Shown: positions 3,695 through 62,589 of the stretch, in pieces
Position numbering within the stretch: the stretch's first letter is position 1
How the letters are laid out: every line of letters begins with the position of its first letter
Source: Rhodocyclaceae bacterium
Lineage (GTDB): Bacteria; Pseudomonadota; Gammaproteobacteria; Burkholderiales; Rhodocyclaceae
Length of the DNA: 64,000 bases
NCBI GenBank assembly: GCA_028687645.1
Contig: JAQTZQ010000004.1
Span: forward strand, 5,124-69,123
Direction of reading: 5' to 3'
Program-made: the position numbers and the translations under genes
Notes under the pieces: generated by a model
Told to the model about the DNA's origin: nothing
Seen by the model: only the letters and a program-made list of their open reading frames with translations
The model's database searches: none

Positions 3695-4965
3695 TGACGG
3701 GAGATGAGATGAGAACACTCAGCAACGATACCCGCACGCCCAAGCGGCACAAGAATCCAGCTGGCCGCAAGCTGCGGTTAATTATCGAGCTGGGTGTTGC
3801 ACTCATCGCCACAATCAGCGCAGCTCAGGCAGCCGACAGCATGCCCGCCATGTCAAAAAAGGCAGCACGGCCAGAACTCGGCTCGTCAGCTATTTTTGCT
3901 CCAGACGGCAAGCTGCTGGTGGCCGCCAAACAAGGCGAACATGTGATGCTTTACCGCAGTGCCGACGAGGGCAAAACCTGGTCGGCACCTGCTGCGGTCA
4001 ACGCCCAACCCGAGGCTATTTCTGCCGATGGTGAAAATCGGCCTAAGCTTGCCTTTGCTGCCGACGGCGGTTTGCTGGTCTCGTGGACGCATCCCTTCCC
4101 CAAATCCAACACCGGTTCGGTACGCCTGGCGCGCGCCGATGATGGTTTGAACTTCGCCCCCCCGATCACCGTGCATCAAGATCAGGCGATCATCACGCAC
4201 CGCTTCGAATCCATGCTCACCACCCCGGATAACAAGGTGATCCTGGCCTGGATCGACAAGCGCGACCTGGAAGCAGCCAAAGCCAGCAAAACCCCCTATC
4301 GTGGCGCCGGCATCTACGCCGCTGTTTCCAAAGACGGTGGCCGCAGCTTTCAGCCCGAATACAAACTGACCGATCATTCCTGCGAATGCTGTCGCGTAAC
4401 TAGCGCTCTTGACCATGATGGCGCCCCGCTCTTCATGTGGCGCCACGTTTACGCGCCCAACGAACGCGACCACGCGCTGGTCCGTTTAAAGCCGGATGGC
4501 ACGCCAGAAACCGTCAAACGCGCCACCTTTGACCGCTGGAAGGTTGATGGCTGCCCGCATCACGGGCCATCGCTGGTGGTCGACACGCAAGGCGTTCGGC
4601 ATGCGGTCTGGTTTAACCAAAAAGAAGGTGGCGGACCGGTTCATTACGGTCGACTGCTAAAAAGTGCCGAAAATTCTGATGAATTGCGCGTCGAAGGCCA
4701 GCGCACCGTCGGTGGTCCGCGTGCGGCGCATGCAGATATAGCCAGTGCGGGCGACAAGCTGGCCATTGTCTGGAAGGAGTTTGATGGCGAACGAACGCAA
4801 CTCCAGGCATTGCTTTCCAGTGATGGCGGCAAAACCTTTACGGAAAAAAACCTGACGGCAACCGATGGTGCCTCCGACCAGGCTCGGGTCATTCATCATC
4901 GCGGTAAGCTTTACGCCTTCTGGCGCACCAACAATGAAAACTTCAGGCTCTTTGCTTTGCCATGA
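3691..4965 (+). CDS. BNR/Asp-box (sialidase-like beta-propeller) periplasmic protein
   Basis: Asp-box motifs SADEGKTW, SKDGGRSF, SSDGGKTF; Cys/His motifs DHSCECCR and DGCPHHGP. Confidence 0.75.
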   Translation: MMTGDEMRTLSNDTRTPKRHKNPAGRKLRLIIELGVALIATISAAQAADSMPAMSKKAARPELGSSAIFAPDGKLLVAAKQGEHVMLYRSADEGKTWSAPAAVNAQPEAISADGENRPKLAFAADGGLLVSWTHPFPKSNTGSVRLARADDGLNFAPPITVHQDQAIITHRFESMLTTPDNKVILAWIDKRDLEAAKASKTPYRGAGIYAAVSKDGGRSFQPEYKLTDHSCECCRVTSALDHDGAPLFMWRHVYAPNERDHALVRLKPDGTPETVKRATFDRWKVDGCPHHGPSLVVDTQGVRHAVWFNQKEGGGPVHYGRLLKSAENSDELRVEGQRTVGGPRAAHADIASAGDKLAIVWKEFDGERTQLQALLSSDGGKTFTEKNLTATDGASDQARVIHHRGKLYAFWRTNNENFRLFALP

Positions 4966-5420
4966 ACAAGATCATATTCATTTTGCTGGTGATCCTTGGC
5001 GGCTCAAGCCAGGCTGCTGAATTCGCAAGCATTGATCGTACTGCTGCTGCCAAGCTGTTTGCAGCTGGCAACTATCGCGAACCCACCATCATCACTTTGT
5101 GGTCGTCCGATTGCAGCCACTGCAAGAAAAACCTGCAATTTCTCTCCGAGCACGTCAAAACCAACAAGCACCTGCGCATTATCACCCTTGCCGCTGAACA
5201 GGAAAGTAACGAACTCGCCCCTATCCTCAATCGCTACCCCTTGCCGGGGCCGCGCTACGTCTATGGCAGCGATAACCCCGAGGCGATTGCTTATGCGATT
5301 GATCCCAACTGGGCTGGCGAGTTGCCGCGCAGCTATCTATTCGATGGTCGCGGCGGAAAAGAGAAAATTTCCGGTGTAATTAGTGCCGCAACGCTTGAAA
5401 AGGCTTTTATGCCGAGATAA
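4962..5420 (+). CDS. Exported thioredoxin-fold (TlpA-like) protein
   Basis: Signal peptide, WSSDCSHC CxxC motif, GELPRSYLFD cis-Pro region. Confidence 0.7.
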   Translation: MNKIIFILLVILGGSSQAAEFASIDRTAAAKLFAAGNYREPTIITLWSSDCSHCKKNLQFLSEHVKTNKHLRIITLAAEQESNELAPILNRYPLPGPRYVYGSDNPEAIAYAIDPNWAGELPRSYLFDGRGGKEKISGVISAATLEKAFMPR

Positions 5421-5433
5421 ACCTTGGGTGGGT

Positions 5434-6948
5434 TTATTTTCGCCCAATGCCGCCCAAAAGAGCCGCGACCACCCGCTTGGGTTTGTGCGGGTCGACCTTG
5501 GGCGGGGCGTTCGGTGAGTCAGGAATCTCGCCGCGCGGCTTGTTGTCTTCGTAGGGCTTGCTGAAATCAAAGCCATCAGCGGCAATCATCGGGTTGCGGC
5601 GGGGTGCTCGCCGATCGTTGCGATCACTGCGCTCGTGGCGATCAGGGCGTTCAGTCCGCTCCGGACGCTGTGCCAAAGGCGCTTTAGGCGGTGGTAGCGC
5701 ACGCTTTTTCTTGTTACCCGGCGGATATTCGTATTCCGCTTCCGGCTCAAAGCCGACGACCTCAACTTGCTCAATCGGGCGCTTGATGAGTTTCTCGATA
5801 TCAACGAGGTAGCCGACTTCATGCGCACTGACCAGCGAAATGGCGTTACCCAGCTTGCCAGCGCGACCGGTACGACCGATGCGGTGCACGTAATCTTCCG
5901 GCGTGTGCGGTAATTCATAATTGATGACGTAAGGCAGGTCGTCCACATCAAGACCGCGCGCGGCGACATCGGTAGCGATCAGGGCATGCGTTTCACCCGC
6001 CTTGAAGGCTTCCAGCGCCTTGATGCGCTCAAGCTGGCTCTTGTCGCCGTGGATCGCGTCGGCGTGAATGCCGGCACGCTGCAGTTCGCGTGTCAGACGC
6101 GAGCAACCCTGCTTGGTGCGCATAAAGATGAGGCATTGACGAATCTCGCTCGATTTGAGCAGCTTGATCAACAGGCCGCGCTTGCCGTATTCAGAGACGG
6201 GATGAACGCGGTGGGTAATATTGTCGGAGACCTGATTGCGCCGGGCGACTTCAATCAGCACCGGGGCGCGCAGCATTTTGTCGGCGAGTTTTTTGATTTC
6301 TTCGGAGAAAGTCGCTGAAAACAGCAGGCTTTGCCGTTGTGCCGGCAACATGTTGAGAATGCGCGTGACATCGGGAACAAAGCCCATGTCGAGCATGCGG
6401 TCGGCTTCGTCAAGAACCAGCACTTGCACCGAGGCAAAACTGACGCTCTTGTTTTCAACGTGATCGAGCAAACGACCGGGGGTGGCGACGAGAATTTCGA
6501 CGCCGCGTTTGAGTTCAGCGATTTGCGGCTTGATATCGACACCGCCAAAAGCGCACATGGCGCGCAGCGGCGTGTGAATGCTGTACGCCTTGACCGATTC
6601 GAAAACCTGCATCGCCAGTTCGCGTGTTGGCGCGAGAATCAGCGCACGAACCGGGTGCTTGGCCGGTGAAGGGCTGCTGCTGGCAAAGGGCAGGATGCGC
6701 TGCAAAATCGGCAGCGTGAACGCAGCGGTTTTGCCGGTGCCGGTCTGGGCGCCGCCCATGATGTCCTGGCCGCCAATAACCAGCGGGATGGCCTGGGCCT
6801 GGATCGGGGTGGGTTTGGTATAGCCTTCGTCGAGCACGGCGCGCAGCAGTTCCGGCGCGAGGCCGAGATCGGCAAAGGTGATTTCGGGGGCTACATCGGC
6901 AGCCTCTATGATGGCGCTGGCGCCTTGTAAGGTATTGATTTCAGACAT
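5434..6948 (-). CDS. rhlE: DEAD-box RNA helicase (RhlE-like)
   Basis: Q motif, AQTGTGKT, PTRELA, DEAD, SAT, HRIGRTGR. Confidence 0.9.
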   Translation of the reverse strand: MSEINTLQGASAIIEAADVAPEITFADLGLAPELLRAVLDEGYTKPTPIQAQAIPLVIGGQDIMGGAQTGTGKTAAFTLPILQRILPFASSSPSPAKHPVRALILAPTRELAMQVFESVKAYSIHTPLRAMCAFGGVDIKPQIAELKRGVEILVATPGRLLDHVENKSVSFASVQVLVLDEADRMLDMGFVPDVTRILNMLPAQRQSLLFSATFSEEIKKLADKMLRAPVLIEVARRNQVSDNITHRVHPVSEYGKRGLLIKLLKSSEIRQCLIFMRTKQGCSRLTRELQRAGIHADAIHGDKSQLERIKALEAFKAGETHALIATDVAARGLDVDDLPYVINYELPHTPEDYVHRIGRTGRAGKLGNAISLVSAHEVGYLVDIEKLIKRPIEQVEVVGFEPEAEYEYPPGNKKKRALPPPKAPLAQRPERTERPDRHERSDRNDRRAPRRNPMIAADGFDFSKPYEDNKPRGEIPDSPNAPPKVDPHKPKRVVAALLGGIGRK

Positions 6949-7002: not shown

Positions 7003-7365
7003 TCAGGCTTGCTTGAGCAAATCTTCAAGCCGCTGGCGGTTGATGGGTTTGACCAAAATTTCATCAAAGCCCGCTGCCAGAAAGCGTTCCCGCTCTTCCG
7101 GGAAGGCGTGTGCGGTGTAGGCAATGATACGCACGCCGTCACCATTGGGCATGGTTCGCAGGCGCGTGCAGGTTTCTTCGCCGGAGATGCCGGGCATGCT
7201 GATGTCGAGCAGAATCAACGAAAAGCGGGTCTGGCTGACCAGTTCAATGGCTCGCTCGCCGCTGTCGGCTTCCTCGGTCTTCCAGCCCAGCTTGCTGAGC
7301 AGGGTGCAGCCTAGCAGCCGGTTGGTGGGATGGTCGTCGACAACGAGCGCGAGGCGATCAGACAT
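7003..7365 (-). CDS. Single-domain response regulator (receiver)
   Basis: LVVDD, LLDISMPGISG, TA and KP receiver motifs. Confidence 0.9.
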   Translation of the reverse strand: MSDRLALVVDDHPTNRLLGCTLLSKLGWKTEEADSGERAIELVSQTRFSLILLDISMPGISGEETCTRLRTMPNGDGVRIIAYTAHAFPEERERFLAAGFDEILVKPINRQRLEDLLKQA

Positions 7366-9895
7366 GGTGCTTTTCCGGTAGATAGACGGTGAACGTAGAG
7401 CCTAACCCAATTTCGGACTCAAGGGTGATGCGCCCCCCCATATGTTCAACCAATTGTTTGACCAGTGCCAGGCCCAAACCGGTGCCATCATGCTGGCGAG
7501 TCAGGAAATTTTCGAGTTGCTTGAATTTTTCAAAGACCTGCTCACGAGCTTCCGGGGGAATGCCGGGGCCGGTGTCGGCAACGGCAAAAGCGATATCGCT
7601 CCCGGAACGACTGGCGCGAACGGTAATGCTGCCCTGGTCGGTAAATTTGACCGCGTTGCTCAGCAAATTATTGAGGATCTGCAGCAGACGCGTGGGGTCG
7701 GTTTCAATCGTTCCCGGCAGCGTTTCGGCAAGCTCGAGCGTCAAGCTCAGTTGCTTGGCGGTAGCTGTCGATTGGTGAGCCATGGCAGCTTCATTGAGCA
7801 GTGAGTTAAGCGGCGTGTTTTGGTAATTGAAACTGAGCTCACCGGCTTCAATTTTTGAGAGATCAAGAATTTCATTGACCAGATTGAGCAAGTGCGTGCC
7901 ACTATTTAAGATAACTTCGGCGTATTCCTGAGCATCCGGTTCGCTGGCTTCGGACTTGATCAGCTCGGCAAAGCCAAGAATGCCATTGAGCGGCGTGCGC
8001 AGCTCGTGCGACATATTGGCCAGGAAAGACGATTTGAGGCGGCTGGCTTCTTCGGCTTTTTCTTTGGCTTCTTCAAGGCGCTTGAAGGATTCAGCAACGG
8101 AATCGGCCATGACGTTGAATGAATCGGCCAGTTCGCCCATTTCGTCCTTGCTGGAAGCGTCAAGGCGATGCCCGAGATCGCCCTGCTGGAAGCGCTTGAT
8201 GCCGCCGATCATGTCGGTGATCTGGCGCGTCAGGAGATTGGCCATCCAGATTGCCACACCAATGACGAAGATGACCATTAGCAGTGTCGAACCCCAAAGA
8301 CCCAGGGCAGTGGCGCCCAGGCGTTCGGTAATATTGCTCAGCATGTCGGCGCGTTGGGCCTTGAAGCTGGCATCCTTTTCATTGACCAGGGTGTTGATTT
8401 TTTTCGCGGTTTCAGTTGCCGATTTATGGAATTCATCGACATTGGCACCAATCGTCACAAAACCGAAGCCTTGCGGTGAGTTGGCGTATTGGCCCGTGTA
8501 ATAAGGGATGGCGGCAGCGGTGGTGAGTTTCCAGAGCCCGGAGAAGAAAATGACGAAGGAACCAGAGCCGCCGTGTTCCGTGAGCGCATTCCAGCCATCG
8601 CATTGCGGGGAGAAATTCAAATAGCGACAGTCAAGGGCAATGGTGCCGGCCTTGATCAAGGCCTTGGCCGGCTTTTTCTTGAGGTTCTGATCCTTGAAGG
8701 CCGGGGTGGCCGCGAGGAATTCATGTGCCGGCTTACCGCTCGCTTGCCATTCGGTGTACAACTCTTCATCCATCCAAGGCGTTTCTGGCAGGCCGGTTTG
8801 CGGGTTGTAGCCCACGATAAAGTAGTCGCGCGGGTGCGAGATTGAACGGCTTTTGTGATCCCACAAAAAGGCGTAATTGCCTTTGATTGCATCGGCGATG
8901 GGGGTGTAGCGTTCCTCAGTCGGCATCAGGCGGTCAGAAAACTGGCGGATGTGATCGTGATCAAGCGCCAGCGTCACATAGCCGGTAATTTGCCCGTTTT
9001 TGACCACTGGTGTCGCCCAGCGGACGATACCGCGAAAGCGTTTGCCAACCGGGTTTTCGGTGCCGGCATAGGCGGATTCTTCCGGTTTGAAGGGCTTGCC
9101 GGCCTTTTCAAGTGCCGCCGGCAGGTAGGGGCCGATGGCCTGGGTCGGCACATAGGCGCCGATGACGTCAGAAACGAATATTTCGCCCGCTTTGAGCTTT
9201 TTGAGTTCAGAGAAGTAGGTTTCGGCACGGACGAAGGTGTTGTTACGGTCAACGACGTTTTTGAGCGATTTTTCTGTCAGGTCGCTGGTCGTGACCTTGA
9301 TCTTTTCCTGACCATTGAGATCAACCAAAGTCATTTCGACGAAGAGTGGTCGCTGTTCGGCTTCGCCAAGATATTCAGGGGGGCGAATATGGAAATTTTT
9401 GGCATTATCAACCAGCACCGGGCGGGTGATTTTGGCTTCCTGGCTGACCAATTTTTCCGGCACCCAGGACTTGCCATCTTCCGCCAGTTTCCAGGGGCCG
9501 TGCTGGTTCAGTGTCCGGCTACGTTCGCTGAGAAAACGCCGAAAGGCCGCCTCGGAAGGCTCAAGCCCGGCGGCTTGCTGGATGTCACGGTCGCGGTCAT
9601 AGAGAAAACTGGCAATCTCCTTGGCGGTATCGGTCGTCAGCGCTTCAATGGCCTCCCGCGAGCGCAGGTCGAGGGCGTCGATCGAGTCATCGGTCACTGT
9701 CTGGCCCATCGATCTGATGCTGGAAAGCATCGAATCAGCCATGCTGCCAGCCTGGCTCGAAACATCTTCACCCAACTGCTGGGAAGCGTGCCAGGCATAC
9801 CAGGCGATGAGAATGAGGGGGATCACCTTGATCAGGATAAAAATCCCGATCAGTTTTGCACGTATTCCTTGTAACCAACCTGCGTATTTCATCAA
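7358..9895 (-). CDS. Sensor histidine kinase: large periplasmic domain, HAMP, HisKA, HATPase
   Basis: Two TM segments; DEMGELADSFN HAMP; FLANMSHELRTPLNGI; NAVKFT, DTGPGI, GTGLGL boxes. Confidence 0.92.
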   Translation of the reverse strand: MMKYAGWLQGIRAKLIGIFILIKVIPLILIAWYAWHASQQLGEDVSSQAGSMADSMLSSIRSMGQTVTDDSIDALDLRSREAIEALTTDTAKEIASFLYDRDRDIQQAAGLEPSEAAFRRFLSERSRTLNQHGPWKLAEDGKSWVPEKLVSQEAKITRPVLVDNAKNFHIRPPEYLGEAEQRPLFVEMTLVDLNGQEKIKVTTSDLTEKSLKNVVDRNNTFVRAETYFSELKKLKAGEIFVSDVIGAYVPTQAIGPYLPAALEKAGKPFKPEESAYAGTENPVGKRFRGIVRWATPVVKNGQITGYVTLALDHDHIRQFSDRLMPTEERYTPIADAIKGNYAFLWDHKSRSISHPRDYFIVGYNPQTGLPETPWMDEELYTEWQASGKPAHEFLAATPAFKDQNLKKKPAKALIKAGTIALDCRYLNFSPQCDGWNALTEHGGSGSFVIFFSGLWKLTTAAAIPYYTGQYANSPQGFGFVTIGANVDEFHKSATETAKKINTLVNEKDASFKAQRADMLSNITERLGATALGLWGSTLLMVIFVIGVAIWMANLLTRQITDMIGGIKRFQQGDLGHRLDASSKDEMGELADSFNVMADSVAESFKRLEEAKEKAEEASRLKSSFLANMSHELRTPLNGILGFAELIKSEASEPDAQEYAEVILNSGTHLLNLVNEILDLSKIEAGELSFNYQNTPLNSLLNEAAMAHQSTATAKQLSLTLELAETLPGTIETDPTRLLQILNNLLSNAVKFTDQGSITVRASRSGSDIAFAVADTGPGIPPEAREQVFEKFKQLENFLTRQHDGTGLGLALVKQLVEHMGGRITLESEIGLGSTFTVYLPEKHHV

Positions 9896-11789: not shown

Positions 11790-12523
11790 TGCCGCATTTG
11801 CCACTCGCGCTGCCGCGCTGGTTTGCCCATCGCGGTGGCGGCAGCTTGGCACCGGAAAATACGCTGGCCGGTATTCGATTGGCTGCCCGTCTTGGTTTCA
11901 AGGCGGTTGAATTTGATGTGATGTTGAGTGGTGACGGTACGCCTGTCCTCATTCACGATGAAACACTGGAGGGCACCACCGATGGCGTCGGCAATGTTTG
12001 CGCAACACCCGACGCCGTACTTTTTGCGCTCGATGCCGGCGACGGTGAGCCGATTCCCCGTTTTGCCGAGGCTGCGCTGCTGTGCCGTCAGCTTGGTCTG
12101 GTGGCCAATGTTGAAATCAAACCGGCAACCGGCTTCGAGCGATCCACGGCTGAAATTGTTGCCCGGATGACCGGCGAGTTGTGGCGTGATGCGCCTGTGC
12201 CGCCGCTAATTTCATCCTTTTCGCTGGAAGCCTTGGAAATTGCGCGCGATCTTGCTCCACAAATCCGGCGCGGCATTCTTTACGAAGCGGTGCCGGCTGA
12301 CTGGCTGGCCGAAATGCAGCGTTTGCAAGCAGTGTCGCTGCATGGCGATGCTGATTTGCTGACCGATCAAGTGCTGGCCGAGGCGAAGGCTGAGGGCATT
12401 CCCGTTTTGTGTTACACGGTCAACGCCGAAAATCAGGCAAAAAATCTGCTTTCACGCGGTGTTTCCGGCATGTTCACCGATAGGCTTGATCTCTTTGCCG
12501 CCGAGGCCGGGTTTTTCTTTTAA
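11789..12523 (+). CDS. ugpQ: Glycerophosphodiester phosphodiesterase
   Basis: AHRGGG, APENTLA, VEFDVML, VLIHDETL, NVEIK. Confidence 0.88.
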   Translation: MPHLPLALPRWFAHRGGGSLAPENTLAGIRLAARLGFKAVEFDVMLSGDGTPVLIHDETLEGTTDGVGNVCATPDAVLFALDAGDGEPIPRFAEAALLCRQLGLVANVEIKPATGFERSTAEIVARMTGELWRDAPVPPLISSFSLEALEIARDLAPQIRRGILYEAVPADWLAEMQRLQAVSLHGDADLLTDQVLAEAKAEGIPVLCYTVNAENQAKNLLSRGVSGMFTDRLDLFAAEAGFFF

Positions 12524-17892: not shown

Positions 17893-19284
17893 TTAAAACG
17901 GTAATTGTATGCCCGGCAAGACGGCATTGAGGGCGCTACGGAAAGTTTGCTGGATGCGCTCCAGCGCCGCAGCGTTATCCGCCTCAAAGCGCAGGACGAC
18001 GACCGGCGTGGTGTTGGACGGGCGGGCAAGGCCGAAACCATCGGCGAATTCGACGCGCAGGCCGTCGATGGTGATTTTCTCGATGGCGCCCTCAAACTGG
18101 CCTTCGGCCTTGAGCTTGTCGATGATGGCGAACGGCTCGCCTTCGGCCATCTTGATGTTGAGCTCCGGGGTCGATGGCGAATTGGGTAAATTTTTGAGCA
18201 CAGAATTACCGTCGACCGTACGACTCAGGATTTCGAGCAGGCGTGCTCCTGTATACAGGCCATCATCGAAGCCGTACCAGCGTTCCTTGAAGAAGGTATG
18301 GCCGGACATTTCGCCGGCCAACGGGGCGCCGGTTTCTTTCAGTTTTTTCTTGACCAGCGCGTGGCCGGTGTTCCACATCAGTGGTACCCCGCCGTGTTGT
18401 TTGATCCACGGGGCGAGCAAACGAGTGCATTTGACGTCGTAAATGATCTGGCCGCCGGGCACGCGCGACAGCACATCAGCGGCGAAAAGCATCAGTTGGC
18501 GGTCGGGGTAGATGATCTCGCCATCTTTGGTGACGACGCCGAGACGGTCGCCGTCGCCGTCGAAGGCAATGCCGATTTCGGCGTCGGTTTCCTTGAGCGC
18601 CTTGATGACATCGGCCAGGTTTTCCGGCTTGGAGGGATCGGGATGGTGGTTGGGGAAGTTGCCATCCACTTCGCAAAACAGCGGCACGATTTCGCAGCCG
18701 AGGCGCTTGAAAAGTTCGGGGGCGATTGCCCCGGCGACGCCGTTGCCGCAATCCATGACGATTTTCATCGGCCGTGCCAGCTTGACGTCGCCGATGATTT
18801 TTTCAACGTAGGCCGGCAGGACGTTGGCTGAGCGGCGCTCGCCTTTGCCGTGTTTGAGATTGCCGGATTCGGCGCGGCGTTTCAAATCCTGTATCGCCTC
18901 CAGCGCCAGCGTGGTGCCGGCGATAACCATTTTCAGGCCGTTGTAATCTGGTGGGTTGTGGCTGCCGGTAACGGAAACGCAGGAGTTGCAGCCAAACTCG
19001 CAGCCGAGTTCGTATGCGGCAAAGTAGGTGACCGGGGTTGGTACGCAGCCGACATCAATGGCGTCGACACCGGCGGCGCAGATGCCGTCCATCAACGCGC
19101 CAGCCAGCTCGGGGCCGGAGAGGCGACCGTCGCGACCGACGGCGATGGCGCGTTGGCCTTGTTCGGCAGCCAGCGAACCGAGGGCGTGGCCGATGCGGCG
19201 GACGATGTCAGCGGTCAGGGATTTATCGACGATGCCGCGAATGTCGTAGGCTTTGAAGATTTCGGCGGGGAGTAATTGGCTCAT
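17893..19284 (-). CDS. Phosphomannomutase/phosphoglucomutase (AlgC-type)
   Basis: TGSHNP, DGDGDR, GEMSGH, ARPSNTTP motifs. Confidence 0.95.
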   Translation of the reverse strand: MSQLLPAEIFKAYDIRGIVDKSLTADIVRRIGHALGSLAAEQGQRAIAVGRDGRLSGPELAGALMDGICAAGVDAIDVGCVPTPVTYFAAYELGCEFGCNSCVSVTGSHNPPDYNGLKMVIAGTTLALEAIQDLKRRAESGNLKHGKGERRSANVLPAYVEKIIGDVKLARPMKIVMDCGNGVAGAIAPELFKRLGCEIVPLFCEVDGNFPNHHPDPSKPENLADVIKALKETDAEIGIAFDGDGDRLGVVTKDGEIIYPDRQLMLFAADVLSRVPGGQIIYDVKCTRLLAPWIKQHGGVPLMWNTGHALVKKKLKETGAPLAGEMSGHTFFKERWYGFDDGLYTGARLLEILSRTVDGNSVLKNLPNSPSTPELNIKMAEGEPFAIIDKLKAEGQFEGAIEKITIDGLRVEFADGFGLARPSNTTPVVVLRFEADNAAALERIQQTFRSALNAVLPGIQLPF

Positions 19285-20675: not shown

Positions 20676-21715
20676 TTTGCGATCCGTTTCAGGCAGGCGT
20701 CGAAAACGATGTCAGGGGTGAGCTGCTTGAGGCAATTCAGGTGACCCAGCGGACATTCTCGCTTGAAGCAGGGGCTACAGTCGAGCTTGAGACTGAGGAT
20801 GTCGGCCTGATCCGAGAGCGGCGGCGTGAAGCCGGGCGAGGAGGAGCCGTAAAGCGTGACCAACGGGCGATTGACCGCCGCAGCAACGTGCATCAGGCCG
20901 GAATCGTTGCAGACCACGAGATCGGCCATGGCGATTAAATCAAGCGCCTGATCCAGCGAAGTGGTGCCGCACAGATTGCGGCACAGACCGGGGGCGAGTT
21001 GCGAAATTTCTTCGGCGACGGCATGGTCTTTGGGCGAACCGAAGAGCCAGATGGCGTAGCCATGAGCCGCCAGCCTTTTGGCCAGTTCGGCAAAGTGGAC
21101 GGCGGGCCAGCGCTTGGCGGGGCCATACTCGGCACCGGGGCAGAAGGCGGCGATGCGTTCCAGTCGCGCTATGGCGAGTTCGGCCAGGGTTTTTTGCTGA
21201 TCTGTTACGGTCGACCGGATTTTTGGGTGAAAAATTGGTTTGGGTAAAGCACTGCCCGGGGCTTCGGCCAGAATGGCAAAGCGTTCAACCATCAGCGGCA
21301 GGGCGGTTTTATCGAGATGATGGCGAACATTGATCAGCCCATAGCGCGATTCGCCGGTGAAGCCGATACGCTTGGGAATGCCCGCCATAAAAGGCACCAG
21401 CGCCGATTTCAGCGAGTTGGGCAGGACATAAACGGCATCGTAGTTGCTGGCTGCCAATTGCCGGGCCAGTCGCCAGCGCGGCTTGATGGACAGTTGCCCG
21501 TGGCCGAAGGGACTGTCGATGACCTCGCTGATTTCGTCCATGCGCTTAAGCACCGGGGCAACCCAGCGCGGGGCCAGGGCGTCAAGCTGCAAACCGGGAT
21601 GTTTGGCATGCAGCCGCGCAAACAGCGGCTGTGCCATGATCGTGTCGCCAATCCACGAAGGAGCAATGACCAGCGCTTTGCGCTGGTCGGTAATTGGGGA
21701 TTGGTCATTGGTCAT
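20672..21715 (-). CDS. waaF: LPS heptosyltransferase II
   Basis: PSWIGDTIM, LPNSLKSAL, CPGAEYGPAKRWP, NDSGLMH. Confidence 0.93.
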   Translation of the reverse strand: MTNDQSPITDQRKALVIAPSWIGDTIMAQPLFARLHAKHPGLQLDALAPRWVAPVLKRMDEISEVIDSPFGHGQLSIKPRWRLARQLAASNYDAVYVLPNSLKSALVPFMAGIPKRIGFTGESRYGLINVRHHLDKTALPLMVERFAILAEAPGSALPKPIFHPKIRSTVTDQQKTLAELAIARLERIAAFCPGAEYGPAKRWPAVHFAELAKRLAAHGYAIWLFGSPKDHAVAEEISQLAPGLCRNLCGTTSLDQALDLIAMADLVVCNDSGLMHVAAAVNRPLVTLYGSSSPGFTPPLSDQADILSLKLDCSPCFKRECPLGHLNCLKQLTPDIVFDACLKRIAK

Positions 21716-35948: not shown

Positions 35949-36158
35949 GAAATTGTTGTTTATTACGGTCAACCGCGAAAAATCGCGAAAAACAGCAAAA
36001 AATTCTTGGACGAATCCCGAATAACCGGCATACTCCGGGCTTCGGGATTTCCAGCCAGTGTTTTGTTCCTGCGCCGTACGTCGGTTTGTCAGTTCCTAGG
36101 TCTTGATTCTCGTATTTTTTGGGCATTAGCCCGTTATTTTTTTCTTAGGAAGCTTCAA

Positions 36159-55413: not shown

Positions 55414-55462
55414 TACGTTAAGCTGTCGTTCCGATGTTCATAAAATTTTGAAGGAGTTCACG

Positions 55463-55645
55463 ATGAAAAAGCTGCAAAAGGGTTTTACGCTCATTGAGCT
55501 GATGATTGTGGTGGCAATTATCGGTATTCTTGCTGCTATTGCTATCCCCCAGTTCAAGTCCTATACGCAGAAGGCCAATGACAAAGCGGCTCAGACGGAT
55601 CTGAAAAATCTTGTCACTTACGCCACGGCCAAGACCGTTAAGTAA
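55463..55645 (+). CDS. pilA: Truncated type IVa pilin (PilA-N-like; 60-aa prepilin, 53-aa mature)
   Basis: KG|[24 protein letters not shown] class III signal with E5; AAGGAG RBS; no globular head. Confidence 0.88.
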
Positions 55646-55672
55646 TTTTTGGGAATTTCAGGAGATACCTAC

Positions 55673-56032: not shown

Positions 56033-56052
56033 GAGGACACCCTCTTTACGCT

Positions 56053-56081
56053 AAATGCCCCGGTTGCCGGGGCATTTTTTT
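56053..56081 (+). terminator. Intrinsic terminator after pilA-N/pilA-C
   Basis: AAATGCCCCGG-TTG-CCGGGGCATTTTTTT. Confidence 0.8.
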
Positions 56082-56107
56082 GGGCACAAATTGGCCTTGG
56101 GTAATCA

Positions 56108-56899
56108 ATGTACCAGTTTTTAAAATTGACTTTGCTGGGTGGGTGGCGAGTGCGAAGCTCGCGAACCATATTGGCGCTGACATTGCTAGCGATTGCGTCA
56201 GCGTGGTTGGCTGGCACTTTTTCATTGCGCCAACCGCAAACCGTCGCCTTTGATGTCGGGTTTTCATTAATTCGCATTCTGGCGGCTCTGATGGCCATTT
56301 TTTGGGTGCAGGAGTTGATCAGTAAAGACCTGGAGCGCAAGACGGTGCTTTGGGCATGCGCCAACCCGGTTTCTCGCAGCCAATATGTACTGGGGCGCTT
56401 TTTGGGCATCGCCGGTATGAGCTTTTTGATGCTTGTCTTGATGGGCGCTGCCTTGTTCCTGATCCAGAGTTGGGTGGCGCCGCAGGTTTATCAGGCTATT
56501 CCAGTGCAATCGGGCTGGATATTGGTTTTGCTGTTTGCCTGTCTTTGGCTGGATATATTGGTGATCACGGCCTTCAGTATATTGATGGCGCTGGTTTCGA
56601 CAACCGCGTTACTACCGTTTTTTCTGTCTATCGTCTTCATGATTGTGGCTCGTGGTCTGGGGCCAACGCTAGCTTATGTGCGGTCGGGAGATTCCAGGTC
56701 GGGCGCTTGGGAACCATTGCTCGATTTTTTGCAATGGATACTCCCTGATTTGTCTCGCTACGATATCCGTGGCATGGCTCTCTATGGCCAGATCATGAAT
56801 GAAAACTCAACTTGGGCATTGGCAATGCAAGCCGGCGGCTACGTTGCCATCATATTGTTGATTGCTACCTTTGCATTTTCCCGTAGAGAATTTGAGTAA
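56108..56899 (+). CDS. ABC-2 type permease (XapD-like)
   Basis: Six TM segments; LI.KDLERKT......P.SR.QYVLGRFLG; LPDL. Confidence 0.8.
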   Translation: MYQFLKLTLLGGWRVRSSRTILALTLLAIASAWLAGTFSLRQPQTVAFDVGFSLIRILAALMAIFWVQELISKDLERKTVLWACANPVSRSQYVLGRFLGIAGMSFLMLVLMGAALFLIQSWVAPQVYQAIPVQSGWILVLLFACLWLDILVITAFSILMALVSTTALLPFFLSIVFMIVARGLGPTLAYVRSGDSRSGAWEPLLDFLQWILPDLSRYDIRGMALYGQIMNENSTWALAMQAGGYVAIILLIATFAFSRREFE

Positions 56900-56915
56900 C
56901 CAAGAGGCGTTATCC

Positions 56916-59900
56916 ATGAATTCTGTTTGGCATTTGTTGCGTCAAAATGATCGCGAGTATGACCCGATTTATCATCAGCATGCGCGCGACGACATTCTCA
57001 GCTTGAGTCTGCGCCAGCCCAGGGTGGTGCTGGATGTCGGTTGTGCCGCTGGTGCTACTGCCCGCCTGCTTAAAGAACGCTTTCCCGATGTGGTGGTGCT
57101 TGGCGTTGAGCCGAATAGCCATCTTGAATCGATGGCCAGGCAAGTTTGTTCAGAGTTTTACGCGCAAACCATCGAGCAATTCCTCGCTGATCGGCCTGAG
57201 CAATGGCTGGGTAAGGTGGATACAGTCATTCTCGGCGATGTGCTTGAGCATCTTGTCGATCCATTTCGTTGCCTTGAAGAATTACATGCGCTGCTCAGTG
57301 AAGATGCGCAGCTTCTGGTTTCGCTGCCCAATATTCGCAACGCCTCGGTTCTGGATAATTTGGCTCGGGGCGACTTTTCGTATCAGCCAGCCGGCATTCT
57401 TGATGTTACTCATTTGCGTTTTTTTACACGAAGAGATGCCGAGCAGCTATTTGTTCAGGCTGGATATGGTGTTGGTGAAACCAAGTTTGTTGTCGATCGA
57501 CGCTCAGAAAGTCTCCTCAATCGATTGGATGGGACTGAAGCTGCTACGCCTCACATGTCCATCAGAGGGGTCGATAGCTCTGATATTCAGGAGCTTACTT
57601 CCTTGCAGTTTTGTTTTTTGCTTTATCGCGAAGGGTTTGGTGATAAAAAGCGGCCGGCAGGATTGTTGGTGAATCCAGATAATGATCCCTCGCTATCTGG
57701 CACTTTGAGCGAAGATGCCAAAAAGCAAAACGATAACTTCTACCATGTATGGGCTCTGCAGCGGACTTTGTCGCCAGCGCGCAGACACGTCATACAGCAA
57801 GCCATTGTGGCTATTGAAACCCCGGAAACCTTCCACTTTGCGGTTTTTGTAGCTGAAGGCCAGTTTGATTTATTGCGAGAAACCTATTTTGCGCTGGAGG
57901 CCCAGCTCTATCCGCATTGGCAGTTGACGGTTCTATCCTTTGATGCACCCTGTGCCTGGTGGCAAGAGAGCGCTCGTCATTCATGGCATCTTCTCGGCGA
58001 TGAAGATGATTCTTTGCTTGCTGTAAATCAACAGCTCATTGATTTGGACTTTAACTGGGTAGCTACCCTTTACCCCGGTGACAGGTTGCCGCCGGAAGCT
58101 CTTTTTGCGTTTGCGGAGGCGGCAAGCCGTCATCCCGAATGGTCCTGGATTTATTCTGACGAAGATAAGTTCACCGCTGAACAAAAGCGTGTCGATCCTT
58201 TATTTAAACCCGATTTCAGCCCCGATTTGTTGCGCTCGCTTCACTATACGGGGGGGCTGAGCGTTATCAGACGTTTAGCATTTATTGCGCTTGAGGGTTT
58301 TGATAGCGAGTTCGAAGGGGTTGAGGACTACGATTTTGCCTTGCGTTTATCGGTTCACCTTAATCCTGATCAGATCGGCCATGTGGCTGACGTTTTATAT
58401 CATCGACATGAAGCGGGGCGTATTTCACATCTGGAGGAGGATGAGCTGTGGGAGCTTGGGCGCTTGGCGGTGGTACGTCATTGTCAGCACCTTGATTGGG
58501 CCGCTGAAGTATCCAAAGGGCCGGCCAAACATACTTGGCGAGTCCGTTACCGTCTCGGCCACCAGCCTTCCGTCGCAATTTTGATTCCTACCCGTGATCG
58601 CCTGGAGGATTTGCGCCGCTGCGTTGATTCCTTATTGAATCTGACTGATTACTCAAATTACGAAATTGTCATTATTGATAACCAGTCATCCGATCCATTG
58701 ATCTTGGACTATATGGCAGGGCTTGAGGCTGCAGGTAAAGCTCGCGTTATCCCGTTTGATGCGCCCTTTAATTTTTCTGCAATGAATAACCGGGCTGCAG
58801 ATAGGGTGAGTAGTGACTATTTGCTGTTGCTGAATAACGATACAGAGATACTGGGTCGCGATTGGCTTGATACCCTGCTAGGCTTTGCCGAGGTGGCAGG
58901 TGCCGGGGTGGTCGGCCCCATGTTGCTCCTGGAAAATGGATTGGTGCAGCACGCTGGCGTAGTTTTGGGCTTGGGTAACATGGTGGCCGAGCACGTATTT
59001 ATTGGCATGCACCCCAACTCAAGCGTTTTGTTGGAGCGTTTGCGCTTAACTCAAAATTACTCTGCTGTTACCGGTGCTTGTCTGTTGACCAAGCGGCAAG
59101 ACTATCTGGATGTCGGTGGGCTGGATGAAGATAACCTTCCTCGCCCTTATCAGGATATTGATTTCTGTCTGAAAATTTCTTCTCAATTAGGTAAGCGCAT
59201 TGTCTGGACGCCCGATGTGCGCTTGATTCACCAAGGCTCTAAGACATACAAAGGACTTAGCGCGGAAAGAACTGAAAAGCCTAAAGCTGATCCTGTTGCG
59301 GATGTTGACTTGCCTACCGAGGGACGCGAGGTCGAATTCATGTTCGCGAAGTGGCCAACCGCTATTGCCACCGACCCGTTTTATAACCGCAACCTTATGC
59401 TCGGAAACCGCAGCGCAGGGATTGAAACCGACCCGCTGCTGACTCTGGGTGATTGGCGCTGCGGCGTGCGTGTTGTGGCTTGCCCCAATGACAATACCGG
59501 GTGTGGTGAATATCGGATAAAAGCACCCATGCGTACATTGCTGGAGGCCGGGCGAATCGACGGTGGCTTAAGCCCTCGTATTTTTGGGCCATCAGAAATT
59601 ATGCGTCTGAATCCAGATGTGGTGGTTGTTCAGCGGCAACTGGAAGATCATCAGGTGCAGGCAATTCAGCGCTACAAAAAGAGATCTTCAAGCATGGTGA
59701 TCTATGAGCTTGATGATCTGGTTACCGTTGGCTGGAGTAAAACGGCGCCGGCCAAGAGAAAGGAGCACATCGCCAACTGTTTGCGCAAGGGGCTTGAGAA
59801 AGTTGATCGGTTTATTGCCTCAACGCCACGCATCGCTGAAGAATATGGTGATTGGTGCAAGAAGGAGACGATCATTGTTCCCAACTATTTACCGATGGAT

Positions 59901-60440
59901 CGGTGGGGTGGCGTTCATGCGCGGCGATTGGAGAGAACTCGGCCCCGCGTCGGATGGGCGGGGGGGGCGAGTCACGCGGCTGACCTTGAGATGATCGCTG
60001 ATGTGGTGAAAATACTGCAGCACGAGGTTGAATGGATTTTCCTGGGGATGTGCCCTGAGGCGCTCAGACCGTATGTTCATGAGTTTCATGAGGGGGTTCC
60101 TATTGAGGGCTATCCTGCGCGCTTGGCGGGGATGAACCTCGATCTTGCACTGGCGCCGTTGGAGAATACCGACTTTAATCAGGCACGGACTGCACTCCGG
60201 ATTCTCGAATATGGAATGCTCGGTTACCCGGTTATCGCGAGTGATATGCCATCGTATCGCATGGGTTTTCCGGTGACCTTGGTGGGGGATAACGTGGACG
60301 ACTGGGTTTCTGCTATTCGCGCCATGGTTTCAGATCGCAGCCAACTTGCCGTGGCGGGTGATCGCTTAAGGCAGCATGTTATCGATCATTGGATTATGGA
60401 TAAAAACATCGACGTCTGGTTTAAGGCGTGGACGCCGTGA
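56916..60440 (+). CDS. Multidomain SAM methyltransferase + GT2 + C-terminal glycosyltransferase protein
   Basis: VLDVGCAAGA, GDVLEHLVDP; YSDED, EDYDF; ILIPTRD, LLNNDTE, AVTGACL, QDIDFC; PRVGWAGG..H, LALAPL...FN. Confidence 0.85.
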   Translation: MNSVWHLLRQNDREYDPIYHQHARDDILSLSLRQPRVVLDVGCAAGATARLLKERFPDVVVLGVEPNSHLESMARQVCSEFYAQTIEQFLADRPEQWLGKVDTVILGDVLEHLVDPFRCLEELHALLSEDAQLLVSLPNIRNASVLDNLARGDFSYQPAGILDVTHLRFFTRRDAEQLFVQAGYGVGETKFVVDRRSESLLNRLDGTEAATPHMSIRGVDSSDIQELTSLQFCFLLYREGFGDKKRPAGLLVNPDNDPSLSGTLSEDAKKQNDNFYHVWALQRTLSPARRHVIQQAIVAIETPETFHFAVFVAEGQFDLLRETYFALEAQLYPHWQLTVLSFDAPCAWWQESARHSWHLLGDEDDSLLAVNQQLIDLDFNWVATLYPGDRLPPEALFAFAEAASRHPEWSWIYSDEDKFTAEQKRVDPLFKPDFSPDLLRSLHYTGGLSVIRRLAFIALEGFDSEFEGVEDYDFALRLSVHLNPDQIGHVADVLYHRHEAGRISHLEEDELWELGRLAVVRHCQHLDWAAEVSKGPAKHTWRVRYRLGHQPSVAILIPTRDRLEDLRRCVDSLLNLTDYSNYEIVIIDNQSSDPLILDYMAGLEAAGKARVIPFDAPFNFSAMNNRAADRVSSDYLLLLNNDTEILGRDWLDTLLGFAEVAGAGVVGPMLLLENGLVQHAGVVLGLGNMVAEHVFIGMHPNSSVLLERLRLTQNYSAVTGACLLTKRQDYLDVGGLDEDNLPRPYQDIDFCLKISSQLGKRIVWTPDVRLIHQGSKTYKGLSAERTEKPKADPVADVDLPTEGREVEFMFAKWPTAIATDPFYNRNLMLGNRSAGIETDPLLTLGDWRCGVRVVACPNDNTGCGEYRIKAPMRTLLEAGRIDGGLSPRIFGPSEIMRLNPDVVVVQRQLEDHQVQAIQRYKKRSSSMVIYELDDLVTVGWSKTAPAKRKEHIANCLRKGLEKVDRFIASTPRIAEEYGDWCKKETIIVPNYLPMDRWGGVHARRLERTRPRVGWAGGASHAADLEMIADVVKILQHEVEWIFLGMCPEALRPYVHEFHEGVPIEGYPARLAGMNLDLALAPLENTDFNQARTALRILEYGMLGYPVIASDMPSYRMGFPVTLVGDNVDDWVSAIRAMVSDRSQLAVAGDRLRQHVIDHWIMDKNIDVWFKAWTP

Positions 60441-61246
60441 TCGTTTTTCGCCCACTGATTGCGATTGTTTTGGCCCTTGCCATGTATGGCGCAGGGTCGC
60501 TGCATCTCAATTATTTGCCTCGAAAAATGGCAGCAGATCAGCTTGATATTGCCATCAACCCTGTAGTTCAGGTGATGCTCGCTGGTGGCGATAGAGCCTT
60601 GGCCGCGAATTTGAATACGATCCGCTTGATTGTGCTGGATGTACTTAATCTTGATAAGCGCGATTATCCTATTCTCGCCAAGGTGCATCGTGACATTGCT
60701 TTTTTGCAGCCCTGCCAAGAAGATAATTATTACGTGGCTCAAGCTTTCTTGCCTTGGATTGGAGAGGTGGCCTCGGCGGATGAAATATTGAAGGCAGCGG
60801 CTGAGTGTCGCGGGCGCGATACGATGCCGGGATTTTTTCTCGCCTTCAATGCCTTTTATTTCCGTAAAGATTTTATGGAAGCCGGTGAATGGTTTGCCGA
60901 GACCGCCAAGCGGGGTGATGAGAAGCAACGGGATCAATTGCTGTACATGGCCAGTAAGTTTTACGAGAAGGGCGAGGATCTGAATCTTGCTGCTGCGGTG
61001 ATTCGCGGGATGGGAATGAACGCAGCCAACGAGCAACTCAAACAATTTTTGCTGGCACGCGCTCTGCGCGTTGAGAATCTGCGTGATTTGAGAGTGGCTG
61101 CAACTGCTTACACCGAGCGTTTCGCCAAGCCTCTCGAAAACCTGCAGTTGCTGGTCGATTCAGGTGTGTTAGTGCAAATCCCTGTTGATCCTCTGGGCAA
61201 GGGATATGACATTGATAGCAGCGGCATCATTCAGTTAAGGAATTAG
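60437..61246 (+). CDS. Helical/TPR-like protein (XapA-like), pilin-locus associated
   Basis: N-terminal TM segment, helical repeats, C-terminal LVDSGVL..IPVDPLG.GY. Confidence 0.6.
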   Translation: MIVFRPLIAIVLALAMYGAGSLHLNYLPRKMAADQLDIAINPVVQVMLAGGDRALAANLNTIRLIVLDVLNLDKRDYPILAKVHRDIAFLQPCQEDNYYVAQAFLPWIGEVASADEILKAAAECRGRDTMPGFFLAFNAFYFRKDFMEAGEWFAETAKRGDEKQRDQLLYMASKFYEKGEDLNLAAAVIRGMGMNAANEQLKQFLLARALRVENLRDLRVAATAYTERFAKPLENLQLLVDSGVLVQIPVDPLGKGYDIDSSGIIQLRN

Positions 61247-61249
61247 GGT

Positions 61250-62164
61250 ATGTCTTCATTGGTTATTGAAACCAGCGAACTGGGTAAAGTTTTCAAGACG
61301 CCATGGATGCGGAAAAAAATCACGGCGGTTGCAGATGTCTCTCTGAAGGTTAGCCAAGGGGAGTCATTCGGGTTTATCGGGCCGAACGGAGCGGGTAAAA
61401 GTACAACGATCAAAATTTTGATGGGTAGCCTGAGGCCGACATCCGGGCAGGCAAAACTTAACGGGCTGGAATGCAGTGACCCAAAATCCAGAATTGGTGT
61501 CGGCTACGTACCAGAAAGCCCCTATCTTTATGATTATTTGACGCCTCTCGAAACTTTGGAGATGGGCTGCAAATTGCACCACGTTCGAGAGCAAAACAGT
61601 CGGGCTTATTGCATGGATTGGCTTGAAAAATTTAGCCTTGCGCATGTGGCATCGAGAAAAATTCGCACCTTTTCCAAGGGAATGGCACAACGAACCGCCC
61701 TGGCTTATGCCTTGGCGGTGCGCCCTCGTCTGCTGGTTCTTGACGAACCTTTGTCAGGCCTCGACCCGGTTGGGCGAAAAGAAGTCATTGATATTTTGAT
61801 GGATTACCGTATCCAGGGCGGCGCGTTGTTTTTTTCTTCACATGTTTTATACGATGTTGAGCGCTTGGCAGATCGCTTTGGATTGATTCATCAGGGGCGC
61901 CTGACTACCGTGCAATCGCCGGCAGAGTTGGTTGGCGAAACGTCAATGATGGTGGTTCGTTCGCTGGGCGAGACGGTGGTGGCCGGTATGGTCGGTGATT
62001 CTTTTGGTCACTGGTATGCAGAAATTGAACAAAACCGACTTTGGCCCTTATTGGATTTGCTCAGAACATCTGGTCACTCGATTGTTGAGGTTAGGCCAAA
62101 AATTTCTTTGGAAACTGCTTTTATGGCCTATGTCTCCAAGGAGACTCCACTAGTCTCGCGATAA
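61250..62164 (+). CDS. ABC transporter ATP-binding protein (XapB-like)
   Basis: GPNGAGKST, FSKGM, LDEPLSGLDP, FFSSH. Confidence 0.9.
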   Translation: MSSLVIETSELGKVFKTPWMRKKITAVADVSLKVSQGESFGFIGPNGAGKSTTIKILMGSLRPTSGQAKLNGLECSDPKSRIGVGYVPESPYLYDYLTPLETLEMGCKLHHVREQNSRAYCMDWLEKFSLAHVASRKIRTFSKGMAQRTALAYALAVRPRLLVLDEPLSGLDPVGRKEVIDILMDYRIQGGALFFSSHVLYDVERLADRFGLIHQGRLTTVQSPAELVGETSMMVVRSLGETVVAGMVGDSFGHWYAEIEQNRLWPLLDLLRTSGHSIVEVRPKISLETAFMAYVSKETPLVSR

Positions 62165-62251
62165 GGTGAATCGCCCCAGAACCCTTTGACTTTCCCGTTG
62201 GTCGCGTGAGCAAATTAAGGTTTCCACAAGTGGAAGCCTAATCAGTTGGAG

Positions 62252-62480
62252 CTACTCAGCTTTCCGCTTATCAATCACCCTTTTTGCCTTACCAATCGAC
62301 CGCTCAATCCCCCCGATTTCAACTACGTCAATCCGTGCCGAAATACCAATGTAGAATTTGATGTGGTGTTGCAGGTCGTGGGCGACGAACTCTTTTTCGG
62401 CGCTGCTGGCGAAGGCAAATTCCGGCTTGAGTTCGACATTGACCTTCATCGAATCGAGATGCCCATCGCGGGTGACTTCC
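62252..62480 (-). pseudogene. 3' remnant of a phenylacetate-CoA ligase (PaaK/PaaF)-like gene
   Basis: EVTRDGHLDSMKVNVE...IGISA...IERSIGKAKRVIDKR; frame closed upstream by TAA, N-terminal part absent. Confidence 0.65.
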
Positions 62481-62589
62481 TGTTACCGGTGCGGAATTTC
62501 CGCACAAATCTGGCGTCGACCGTAACATTCGCCTTGCTTTCGTGTTGGAGTAATTGACAACATTCGCTCGTCTTGTTATTTTCTCCAAC

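Follow-up and report, generated by a model that had tools for sequence, protein, structure and literature searches.

A dispersed RCGGTCRAC motif with two phased A/T tracts, a candidate self-DNA uptake signal in the Azonexus/Dechloromonas group

In a 64-kb stretch of Rhodocyclaceae DNA (contig JAQTZQ010000004.1, positions 5,124 to 69,123; the whole stretch is called the window below), an asymmetric motif of about 35 bp was found in 23 dispersed copies, in which the core RCGGTCRAC is followed by two A/T tracts. Judged from its sequence features, the motif is probably a self-DNA uptake signal of the uptake signal sequence (USS) type, belonging to a sub-clade of the Azonexus/Dechloromonas group. 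This reading was preferred because the copy number, the asymmetry, the presence in both orientations, the tolerance in coding DNA in preferred frames, the mutational origin, the intergenic enrichment, the regular spacing and the restriction to a clade, with variation at degenerate positions, all fit published USS. The same function had been proposed in a first-pass annotation of the window; the features that it had named and that could be checked held, and the uptake function itself stays a probable one.

The core was matched exactly 26 times in the window (18 plus, 8 minus), whereas 100 dinucleotide-preserving shuffles of the same DNA gave a mean of 1.97 matches and a maximum of 6. The most over-represented 8-mers and 9-mers of the window derived from the motif. 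The two-tract design accompanied the core in 23 of the 26 cases (16 plus, 7 minus), which corresponds to 0.36 full copies per kb, or about one per 2.8 kb. A two-tract pattern, written as a strict regular expression, was located 3' of 21 of the 26 cores as compared with 6.2% of all positions (P = 2e-21), and TT stood immediately 5' of the core in 15 of the 26 copies against a background of 5% (P = 2e-13). The first-pass annotation had claimed 23 copies with the same strand distribution, about 26 cores against some 3 expected and paired A/T tracts about 10 bp apart. Parsing of the flanks gave the same count, all its coordinates and example sequences were correct, the excess was reproduced against the shuffled DNA and the tracts proved strongly enriched after the core and helically phased.

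Read on the core strand, the motif starts with tGTT and continues with RCGGTCRAC, a first spacer of 3-5 bases, mainly G/C (consensus gcCg), a first A/T tract of 4-6 bp, a second spacer of 5-7 bases, again mainly G/C, and a second A/T tract of 5-7 bp, commonly with TT at its end. Counted from the end of the core, the first tract begins at about +4/+5 and the second at +14 to +16, so that their starts lie about 10-11 bp, or one helical turn, apart. The consensus was TGTTACGGTCAACGCCGAAAATGGGGCAAAAATT. The CGGT of the core was invariant and was preceded by A in 17 of the 26 window copies and by G in 9, and a mild preference for GC ahead of the second tract was noticed. A position weight matrix (PWM) built from the 23 full window copies retrieved them with scores of 17-45 bits and yielded almost no other matches, so the population of copies is sharply defined. 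The copies, with the span, the core, the strand, the location and the PWM score, and the three cores lacking the full design are as follows.

4642..4676, core 4646-4654, plus: full copy, sense (frame YGR) in the BNR-repeat protein gene 3691-4965; 37.0 bits
9241..9275, core 9245-9253, plus: full copy, antisense in the sensor histidine kinase gene 7358-9895(-); 32.8 bits
12412..12446, core 12416-12424, plus: full copy, sense (TVN) in the GDPD-family gene 11789-12523; 36.0 bits
13984..14018, core 13988-13996, plus: full copy, sense (AVN) in alaS 12566-15181; 38.0 bits
15670..15704, core 15674-15682, plus: full copy, intergenic, 6 nt past the glyoxalase-family open reading frame (ORF) 15084-15668; 40.1 bits
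18189..18223, core 18211-18219, minus: full copy, sense (TVD) in the phosphoglucomutase gene 17893-19284(-); 28.3 bits
19452..19486, core 19474-19482, minus: full copy, sense (AVN) in the hydrolase gene 19291-20247(-); 30.1 bits
21203..21237, core 21207-21215, plus: full copy, antisense in the heptosyltransferase-like gene 20672-21715(-); 36.9 bits
23596..23630, core 23600-23608, plus: full copy and best consensus match, sense (AVD) in the gene 23441-23992; 44.9 bits
25995..26029, core 26017-26025, minus: full copy, antisense in purB 25820-27202; 36.9 bits
27749..27783, core 27753-27761, plus: weak copy with a poor second tract, sense in the DUF2322 gene 27479-27796; 24.0 bits
32887..32921, core 32891-32899, plus: weak copy, sense (RST frame) in the STAS-domain gene 32673-32981; 16.9 bits
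35961..35995, core 35965-35973, plus: full copy, intergenic, 17 nt past the EPSP-synthase-family (PF00275; murA-like) gene 34686-35948; 37.3 bits
37129..37163, core 37133-37141, plus: full copy, sense (TVD) at the 5' end of hisD 37109-38410; 36.1 bits
38401..38435, core 38423-38431, minus: full copy spanning the hisD stop codon (38410), with the core in the gap beyond; 29.4 bits
38857..38891, core 38879-38887, minus: full copy, either intergenic or within the chromate-transporter ORF 38558-39502, in its unmatched 5' part; 39.9 bits
40975..41009, core 40997-41005, minus: full copy, sense (YGQ frame) in the aminotransferase gene 40344-41504(-); 39.9 bits
44001..44035, core 44005-44013, plus: full copy, sense (AVD) in the hisF-like gene 43546-44304; 25.7 bits
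47893..47927, core 47897-47905, plus: full copy, sense (AVN) in tatC 47138-47980; 40.6 bits
51110..51144, core 51114-51122, plus: full copy, sense (TVN) in the FAA-hydrolase gene 50820-51521; 34.7 bits
53820..53854, core 53824-53832, plus: full copy, intergenic, about 30 nt past the ParE-like gene 53503-53793; 41.0 bits
55045..55079, core 55049-55057, plus: full copy, intergenic, 27 nt past the Fic gene 54018-55022 and ahead of the pilin-like ORFs; 40.9 bits
62493..62527, core 62515-62523, minus: full copy, intergenic; 36.6 bits
495..503, minus: core without tracts, antisense in exbB, probably a chance or decayed copy
3994..4002, plus: core with weak flanks, sense in the gene 3691-4965; 15.2 bits
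40307..40315, minus: core without tracts, antisense in the RlmA-like methyltransferase gene

The three cores at the end of the list, at 495-503(-), 3994-4002(+) and 40307-40315(-), look like chance matches or decayed copies.

The window represents ordinary chromosome, with exbBD, a TonB-dependent receptor gene, rhlE, alaS, pgm, purB, the mla operon, the murA-like gene, the his operon and tatABC. The gene model, with functions checked by NCBIfam and Pfam, contained 66 genes covering 87% of the bases. Relative to these genes, 14 of the 26 cores were placed in sense, 5 in antisense and 7 between genes; the sense cores were read as [T/A]-V-[N/D] in 10 cases, as YG(Q/R)/CGQ in 3 and as RST in one. 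A codon-aware null was obtained by shuffling synonymous codons within each gene 1000 times, with the protein and the codon usage kept. Under this null 3.25 +/- 1.8 cores were expected inside genes, with a maximum of 10, and 19 were present. The excess beyond the synonymous-codon null places the signal at the DNA level, as the first-pass annotation had concluded from 13 sense copies in three frames, 4 antisense and 6 intergenic ones; the recount gave 13 full copies in sense, 3-4 in antisense and 6-7 in intergenic positions.

Placement was also scored in a wider sample of 318 kb of motif-bearing DNA, consisting of the window and of loci with at least two strong matches. Among the 99 copies in this sample, 39 were sense, 21 antisense and 39 intergenic. 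Thus 61% of copies lay inside genes, and the intergenic share of 39% compared with 13% of the bases indicated an approximately 3-fold enrichment between genes. Random placement gave a coefficient of variation of 0.96 for the spacing, and the 23 window copies, at 0.60, were spaced more evenly (P = 0.006). Regular spacing has also been described for USS and for the DNA uptake sequences (DUS) of Neisseriaceae (PMC1626085).

At orthologous loci, copies were found at identical positions of the same genes across the motif-bearing genomes, and the coding alignments inspected contained no indels at these sites; AlaS, for example, was 871-873 aa long with or without the motif. The alaS site reads GCGGTCAAT cag/gag ctg aac/aag gaa ggc/ggt gaa atc in D. 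denitrificans and Sulfuritalea and GCGGTCAAC gcc cta aat gag gga gaa att in the window. The protein is nearly unchanged, and rare codons together with two conservative replacements make up the core, the G/C spacer and both tracts. For the copy at 9241..9275, in which both tracts are T-rich, orthologous copies were present in A. hydrophilus and Ca. D. phosphorivorans. The core at 12412..12446 was kept in the motif-bearing relatives, with ACCGTCAAC at this site in D. denitrificans, and the site 21203..21237 reads GCCGACGAC in the latter. At the pgm site (18189..18223) every relative reads TCGGCCGAC or GCAAGCGAC, and the gain of the motif there (18219) was particular to the window lineage and proceeded via several substitutions.

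In the motif-bearing relatives, the seven invariant core positions differed in 7 of 161 comparisons (4.3%) as opposed to 20.2% in the flanks (Fisher P = 1.7e-8), and five of the seven differences stemmed from a single window-specific gain. In the motif-lacking relatives, the same proteins showed a core divergence of 18.4% and a flank divergence of 20.6%, which did not differ significantly. Since the core was conserved only in the motif-bearing genomes, it is maintained by a lineage-specific force and not by protein constraint. The alignments indicate that copies arise by substitution in conserved genes rather than by insertion. Metagenome fragments aligned with the window were also considered as a test of constraint and abandoned in favour of the orthologous loci, as they were dominated by mixed relatives.

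Cores or one-mismatch cores without A/T tracts were observed at several orthologous sites in the motif-lacking loci L060, L273 (GC 68%), L266 and L271. In alaS such retained cores read GCGGTCAAC or GCGGTCAAT. They could be the remains of a decayed ancestral signal or precursor sequence constrained by the protein.

The AlaS protein of the window shared at most 94% identity with any protein of the public collection, and its nearest named relatives were Azonexus and Dechloromonas. Neither AlaS nor HisD of the window had an exact entry there, so the collection does not contain the genome itself. On this similarity the window belongs to the Azonexus/Dechloromonas group of Rhodocyclales, in agreement with the order assumed in the earlier annotation. 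DNA near-identical to it was found in landfill, groundwater and freshwater metagenomes. The relatives were compared over the alaS neighbourhood with a PWM cut-off of at least 20 bits, and the motif was detected, besides the window, in four of them, two being named genomes and two metagenome-assembled genomes (MAGs) of related bacteria.

Ca. Dechloromonas phosphorivorans MAG GCA_016709495: 0.40 copies per kb, 56% GC
Azonexus hydrophilus GCA_001956855: 0.27 copies per kb
MAG from ENA: 0.31 copies per kb
MAG GCA_041307825: 0.31 copies per kb
The window itself, at the same cut-off: 0.34 copies per kb

No PWM match was obtained at the alaS loci of D. denitrificans CP075186, Azonexus sp. IMCC34842, GCA_041909275 and Dechloromonas sp. 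STC_94, and the alaS loci of 80 other betaproteobacterial species (1.44 Mb) gave one match. The range of carriers (A. hydrophilus, Ca. D. phosphorivorans and related MAGs) is far narrower than a family. In a single-gene AlaS tree the motif-bearing genomes were close to each other, yet not cleanly monophyletic relative to D. denitrificans. An exact-pattern scan of metagenome contigs revealed more than 120 loci, 31 of them with at least three cores, at a GC content of 54-65%, and the copies in these loci that had not triggered the search showed the same upstream T/G/T preference and the two A/T tracts. Viral contigs contained 65 single matches, roughly the chance level, with no build-up in any viral contig. 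Another "dialect" was considered for D. denitrificans, IMCC34842, STC_94 and GCA_041909275 and rejected, as their over-represented 8-mers CTGTTCGG, AGGGCCAG and TGCTCGAC had no conserved flanks. These words resemble codon-pair effects, but samples of this size (22 kb) are too small to speak against a dialect.

In the literature consulted, uptake sequences are named for two families only, Pasteurellaceae and Neisseriaceae (PMC1626085; bioRxiv 10.1101/2025.10.24.684340), and the motif was compared with their published descriptions (PMC1626085, PMC3458573 and bioRxiv 10.1101/2025.10.24.684340). In its layout, a core with two phased 3' A/T tracts is specifically the design of the Pasteurellaceae USS. 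The closest likeness was noted for the Apl-type USS of Actinobacillus pleuropneumoniae and Mannheimia haemolytica, which consists of ACAAGCGGTC, AAATTT and AAAATTTTGCAAAT (PMC1626085). In both motifs two A/T-rich segments lie 3' of an asymmetric core of about 9-10 bp, both contain the octamer GCGGTCAA, and a shift of 3 nt aligns the consensus with GCCGAAAAT...GCAAA of the synthetic USS-Apl, part of which may be filler. They also share copy numbers of hundreds to thousands (extrapolated here), both orientations, tolerance in coding DNA and mutational origin. On the other hand, the 5' half of the core is ACAA in the Apl USS and tGTT here, the first core position is more often A than G here, the G/C spacer of about 4 bp between the core and the first tract is unlike USS segment 2, and most tracts are rich in A when read on the core strand. 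The Apl USS is a demonstrated uptake signal, the present motif a probable one. The resemblance is to be taken as a lead rather than a test. That it reflects a related receptor, the motif being a working uptake signal in free-living Rhodocyclales and the shared GCGGTCAA and phased A/T segments its trace, is unlikely.

Differences from Pasteurellaceae in general concerned the density, which was about half here, the terminator pairs, which were absent here, and the host, a free-living betaproteobacterium of 56-64% GC. Compared with the global Pasteurellaceae consensus ANNNGCGGT, whose core contains GCGGT, CGGT was invariant here and tGTT stood upstream instead of A-NNN. In the Haemophilus (Hin) USS, too, the core measures 9 bp and is flanked on one side by two A/T tracts in helical phase (PMC3458573); CGGT lies inside both cores, the four inner core bases dominate uptake in Haemophilus, and regular spacing and the lack of orientation bias are common to both. 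The Hin USS has another core sequence, another spacing of its first tract and another host, and many Hin USS form inverted pairs in terminators. The DUS of Neisseriaceae (GCCGTCTGAA and its dialects), read by the minor pilin ComP, are the only other betaproteobacterial case. Like the present motif, they occur in large numbers, are lineage-specific (with dialects), are tolerated within coding DNA and show enrichment between genes. They are, however, plain 10-12-mers of unrelated sequence, without flanking A/T tracts and often paired as terminators. Exact Hin and Apl USS cores did not occur in the window and GCCGTCTGAA occurred once, which sets the motif outside both known sequence families. No earlier description of the motif was found in the literature, nor anything relevant on its strings.

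If the motif is an uptake signal, a surface DNA receptor of the type IV pilus machinery would bind double-stranded RCGGTCRAC during natural transformation, the receptor probably being a minor pilin like ComP of Neisseria or the predicted ComN of Pasteurellaceae. The two 3' A/T tracts, one helical turn apart, would ease the bending of the DNA, and a loop would be pulled through the secretin. Motif-bearing fragments would be preferentially taken up and recombined, and by this molecular drive point mutations that create or improve the motif would spread, also into coding DNA where the protein tolerates them. The binding step at the receptor, the part played by the tracts in bending and competence itself are all inferred. 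The type IV pilin-like gene of the window suggests that the organism probably makes type IV pili.

Several points weigh against an uptake signal. No natural competence or biased DNA uptake was found in the literature for Azonexus/Dechloromonas, and the 64 kb of the window contained, besides the pilin-like ORF, none of the competence genes comEA, comEC, dprA and pilQ and no minor pilin gene. The absence of the motif from the close relative D. denitrificans calls for a recent gain or loss, whereas known USS and DUS are family-wide. The inverted terminator pairs common for USS and DUS were essentially absent. The number of about 1,500 copies per genome is an extrapolation from the 64 kb and about 0.4 Mb of related fragments. 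Finally, all measured features would also fit a high-specificity intracellular DNA-binding protein with selected sites.

Such a protein, engaged in nucleoid organisation, segregation, replication or repair and reading a chromosome-wide array of sites in which the A-tracts supply a bend, constitutes the main rival explanation, although we regard it as rather unlikely. The regular spacing of the copies, the conservation of the core in certain lineages only, the DNA bending implied by phased A-tracts, the spread of the motif throughout housekeeping DNA and a literature without competence data for the group are all in line with it. The parS, matS, SBS and NBS site families comprise tens of sites per genome. 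The extrapolated 1,500 copies exceed these known nucleoid and segregation sites by far, and abundant nucleoid proteins have degenerate sites instead of sites of about 35-40 bits. A gain or loss between very close relatives with the same housekeeping genes is also difficult to reconcile with an intracellular role, and a proven uptake signal has the same design and shares part of the core.

A Chi-like recombination hotspot or regulatory sequence of RecBCD/AddAB, or a KOPS-like guide for a translocase, is very unlikely. Chi and KOPS are also short words over-represented throughout coding DNA at a similar density, one copy per about 2.8 kb being near the density of Chi in E. coli, and the 16:7 excess in the window fell on the G-rich, presumably leading, strand. 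In the sample of 318 kb, however, the G-rich strand carried 52 copies (58%) and the C-rich strand 37 (n = 89, P = 0.14), far below the skews of Chi and KOPS, with the leading strand assigned only approximately from the GC skew of short loci. Replichore strand bias had been put forward for testing in the first-pass annotation, and strict strand polarity is absent from the window and the relatives' loci. The plus-strand excess in the window chiefly tracks the preference for the sense orientation in plus-strand genes, and the bias within genes follows the sense strand and not the direction of replication. The known words, moreover, are single-strand signals of 5-8 nt, strongly co-oriented with replication and devoid of phased A/T tracts, whereas the motif is bipartite, about 35 bp long and weakly biased, if at all.

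Still less probable is a by-product of methylation/restriction or of short-patch repair at GTCRAC, a subset of the HincII site GTYRAC. This hexamer lies within the core, the palindrome GTCGAC is present in about 40% of cores, and some copies make the 12-bp palindrome ACGGTCGACCGT. The GTCRAC hexamers were not enriched on their own, with 33 GTCAAC against 44 expected and 52 GTCGAC against 45 expected, and the whole excess comes from the longer asymmetric motif. A process acting at the level of the hexamer cannot account for tGTT or for A/T tracts up to 25 bp off.

Secondary structure was considered in several forms. A hairpin formed by the G/C spacers round the first tract (e.g. CCGCTgaaaAGCGG) was rejected as a defining feature, as permuted partners paired equally well in the window (P = 0.49), and with 205 copies the spacer complementarity was marginal (z = 2.3, mean stem below 2 bp). 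The intergenic copies 53824, 55049 and 35965 can make a stem of 4-5 bp about the first A-tract. A terminator role was rejected likewise: no intrinsic terminator was predicted on the four intergenic copies scanned, among them the one at 35961..35995, and inverted pairs were nearly absent. Paired inverted copies at terminators, a check suggested in the first-pass annotation, amounted to essentially none in the window and the relatives' loci. The window held no convergent inverted pair, and about 0.8 Mb of loci yielded no more than one or two true double copies, most of the apparent inverted pairs being single copies with a spacer starting with CG, which completes the palindrome CGGTCGACCG. No Rfam match was obtained in the window. 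A larger repeat about the near-identical copies 53824 and 55049 was dismissed, as their similarity is confined to about 45 nt. REP, BIME and MITE elements are inserted, hairpin-forming intergenic units, whereas the motif occurs in genes without indels and with absent or marginal hairpin covariation. A mobile or structured repeat (REP, BIME, MITE or a small RNA element) or an artefact of peptide or codon usage, to which the short stems and the 10 of 14 sense cores encoding [TA]V[ND] could point, is essentially excluded by the in-frame copies in conserved proteins without indels, the spacer pairing no better than permuted, the lack of Rfam matches and of terminators predicted on the scanned copies, the occurrence in three frames, in antisense and between genes and the excess that survives the synonymous-codon null.

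The true double copies in a few relatives were of two types. In one, copies of opposite orientation share the palindromic centre CGGTCGACCG and have A/T tracts on both sides; the other is a convergent pair 32 bp apart at a gene start in A. hydrophilus. The sites (L267 17916-17927 and 20104-20145, L161 ~226 and L235 ~1800) are rare and not terminator-like. A separate, canonical intrinsic terminator, CGCCCGG-ACCT-CCGGGCG with a T-run, was noticed at 38454-38471(+), downstream of hisD and after the copy 38401-38435.

Should the motif indeed act as a self-DNA uptake signal, it would be the first one in a free-living environmental group, as both known families are host-associated, and self-DNA recognition would also evolve outside pathogens and commensals. 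The carriers are environmental bacteria, including the wastewater polyphosphate-accumulating Ca. Dechloromonas phosphorivorans and the cultured Azonexus hydrophilus. D. denitrificans, which lacks the motif, offers a natural gain/loss contrast for finding the receptor by comparative genomics, and with a cultured carrier and a motif-free close relative at hand the hypothesis is directly testable. An uptake signal of this build would give a chance to test phased A/T tracts as a bending aid in uptake, and the motif added to transforming DNA might help the genetic manipulation of the group. If, in addition, the receptor were related to that of the Apl USS, specificity of the USS type would be an older or horizontally spread trait not confined to two host-associated families, and uptake specificity could come and go between closely related environmental species.

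The part of the window at 51500-64000 is an accessory stretch of lower GC content (about 50-51%). It harbours pairs that resemble toxin-antitoxin systems, namely PIN/Phd (51580-52196), TumE/HVO_A0114 (62554-63218) and a ParE-like gene (53503-53793) whose partner lies upstream, along with the Fic/MarR-domain gene 54018-55022, an ABC-2 transporter and a glycosyltransferase-like protein of 1192 aa. Three copies of the motif, all intergenic, were located there, i.e. 0.25 per kb as compared with 0.38 elsewhere in the window, a difference that was not significant. The type IV pilin-like ORF 55463-55645(+) in this stretch encodes 60 aa with a Pfam N_methyl domain (PF07963) and ends at a stop codon. 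An ORF of 127 aa without a Pfam match (55649-56032(+)) follows almost directly in the same frame, and a pilin N-terminal fragment of 33 aa (55213-55314(+)) is situated about 250 bp upstream. A pilin that is short or split could account for the ORFs at 55213-56032, and so could a disrupted pilin gene of which a duplicate was left over.

Apart from the motif, 8-mers containing AAGGACA were over-represented in the window (about 10 against 1.4 expected), with 15 sites, e.g. 10723, 12926 and 50809. They were rejected as a second signal, being without common flanks or a fixed position relative to genes and corresponding mostly to K-D-K/Q codons, and their excess is probably a codon-pair effect. The his operon (36452-46465) was found to be interrupted. 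After hisG and hisD it carries the chromate-transporter ORF and the RlmA-like methyltransferase gene, which are followed by the class I/II aminotransferase gene (hisC-like) on the opposite strand and then by hisB, hisH, hisA, hisF and hisI, and a DUF3943 gene is inserted ahead of hisE.

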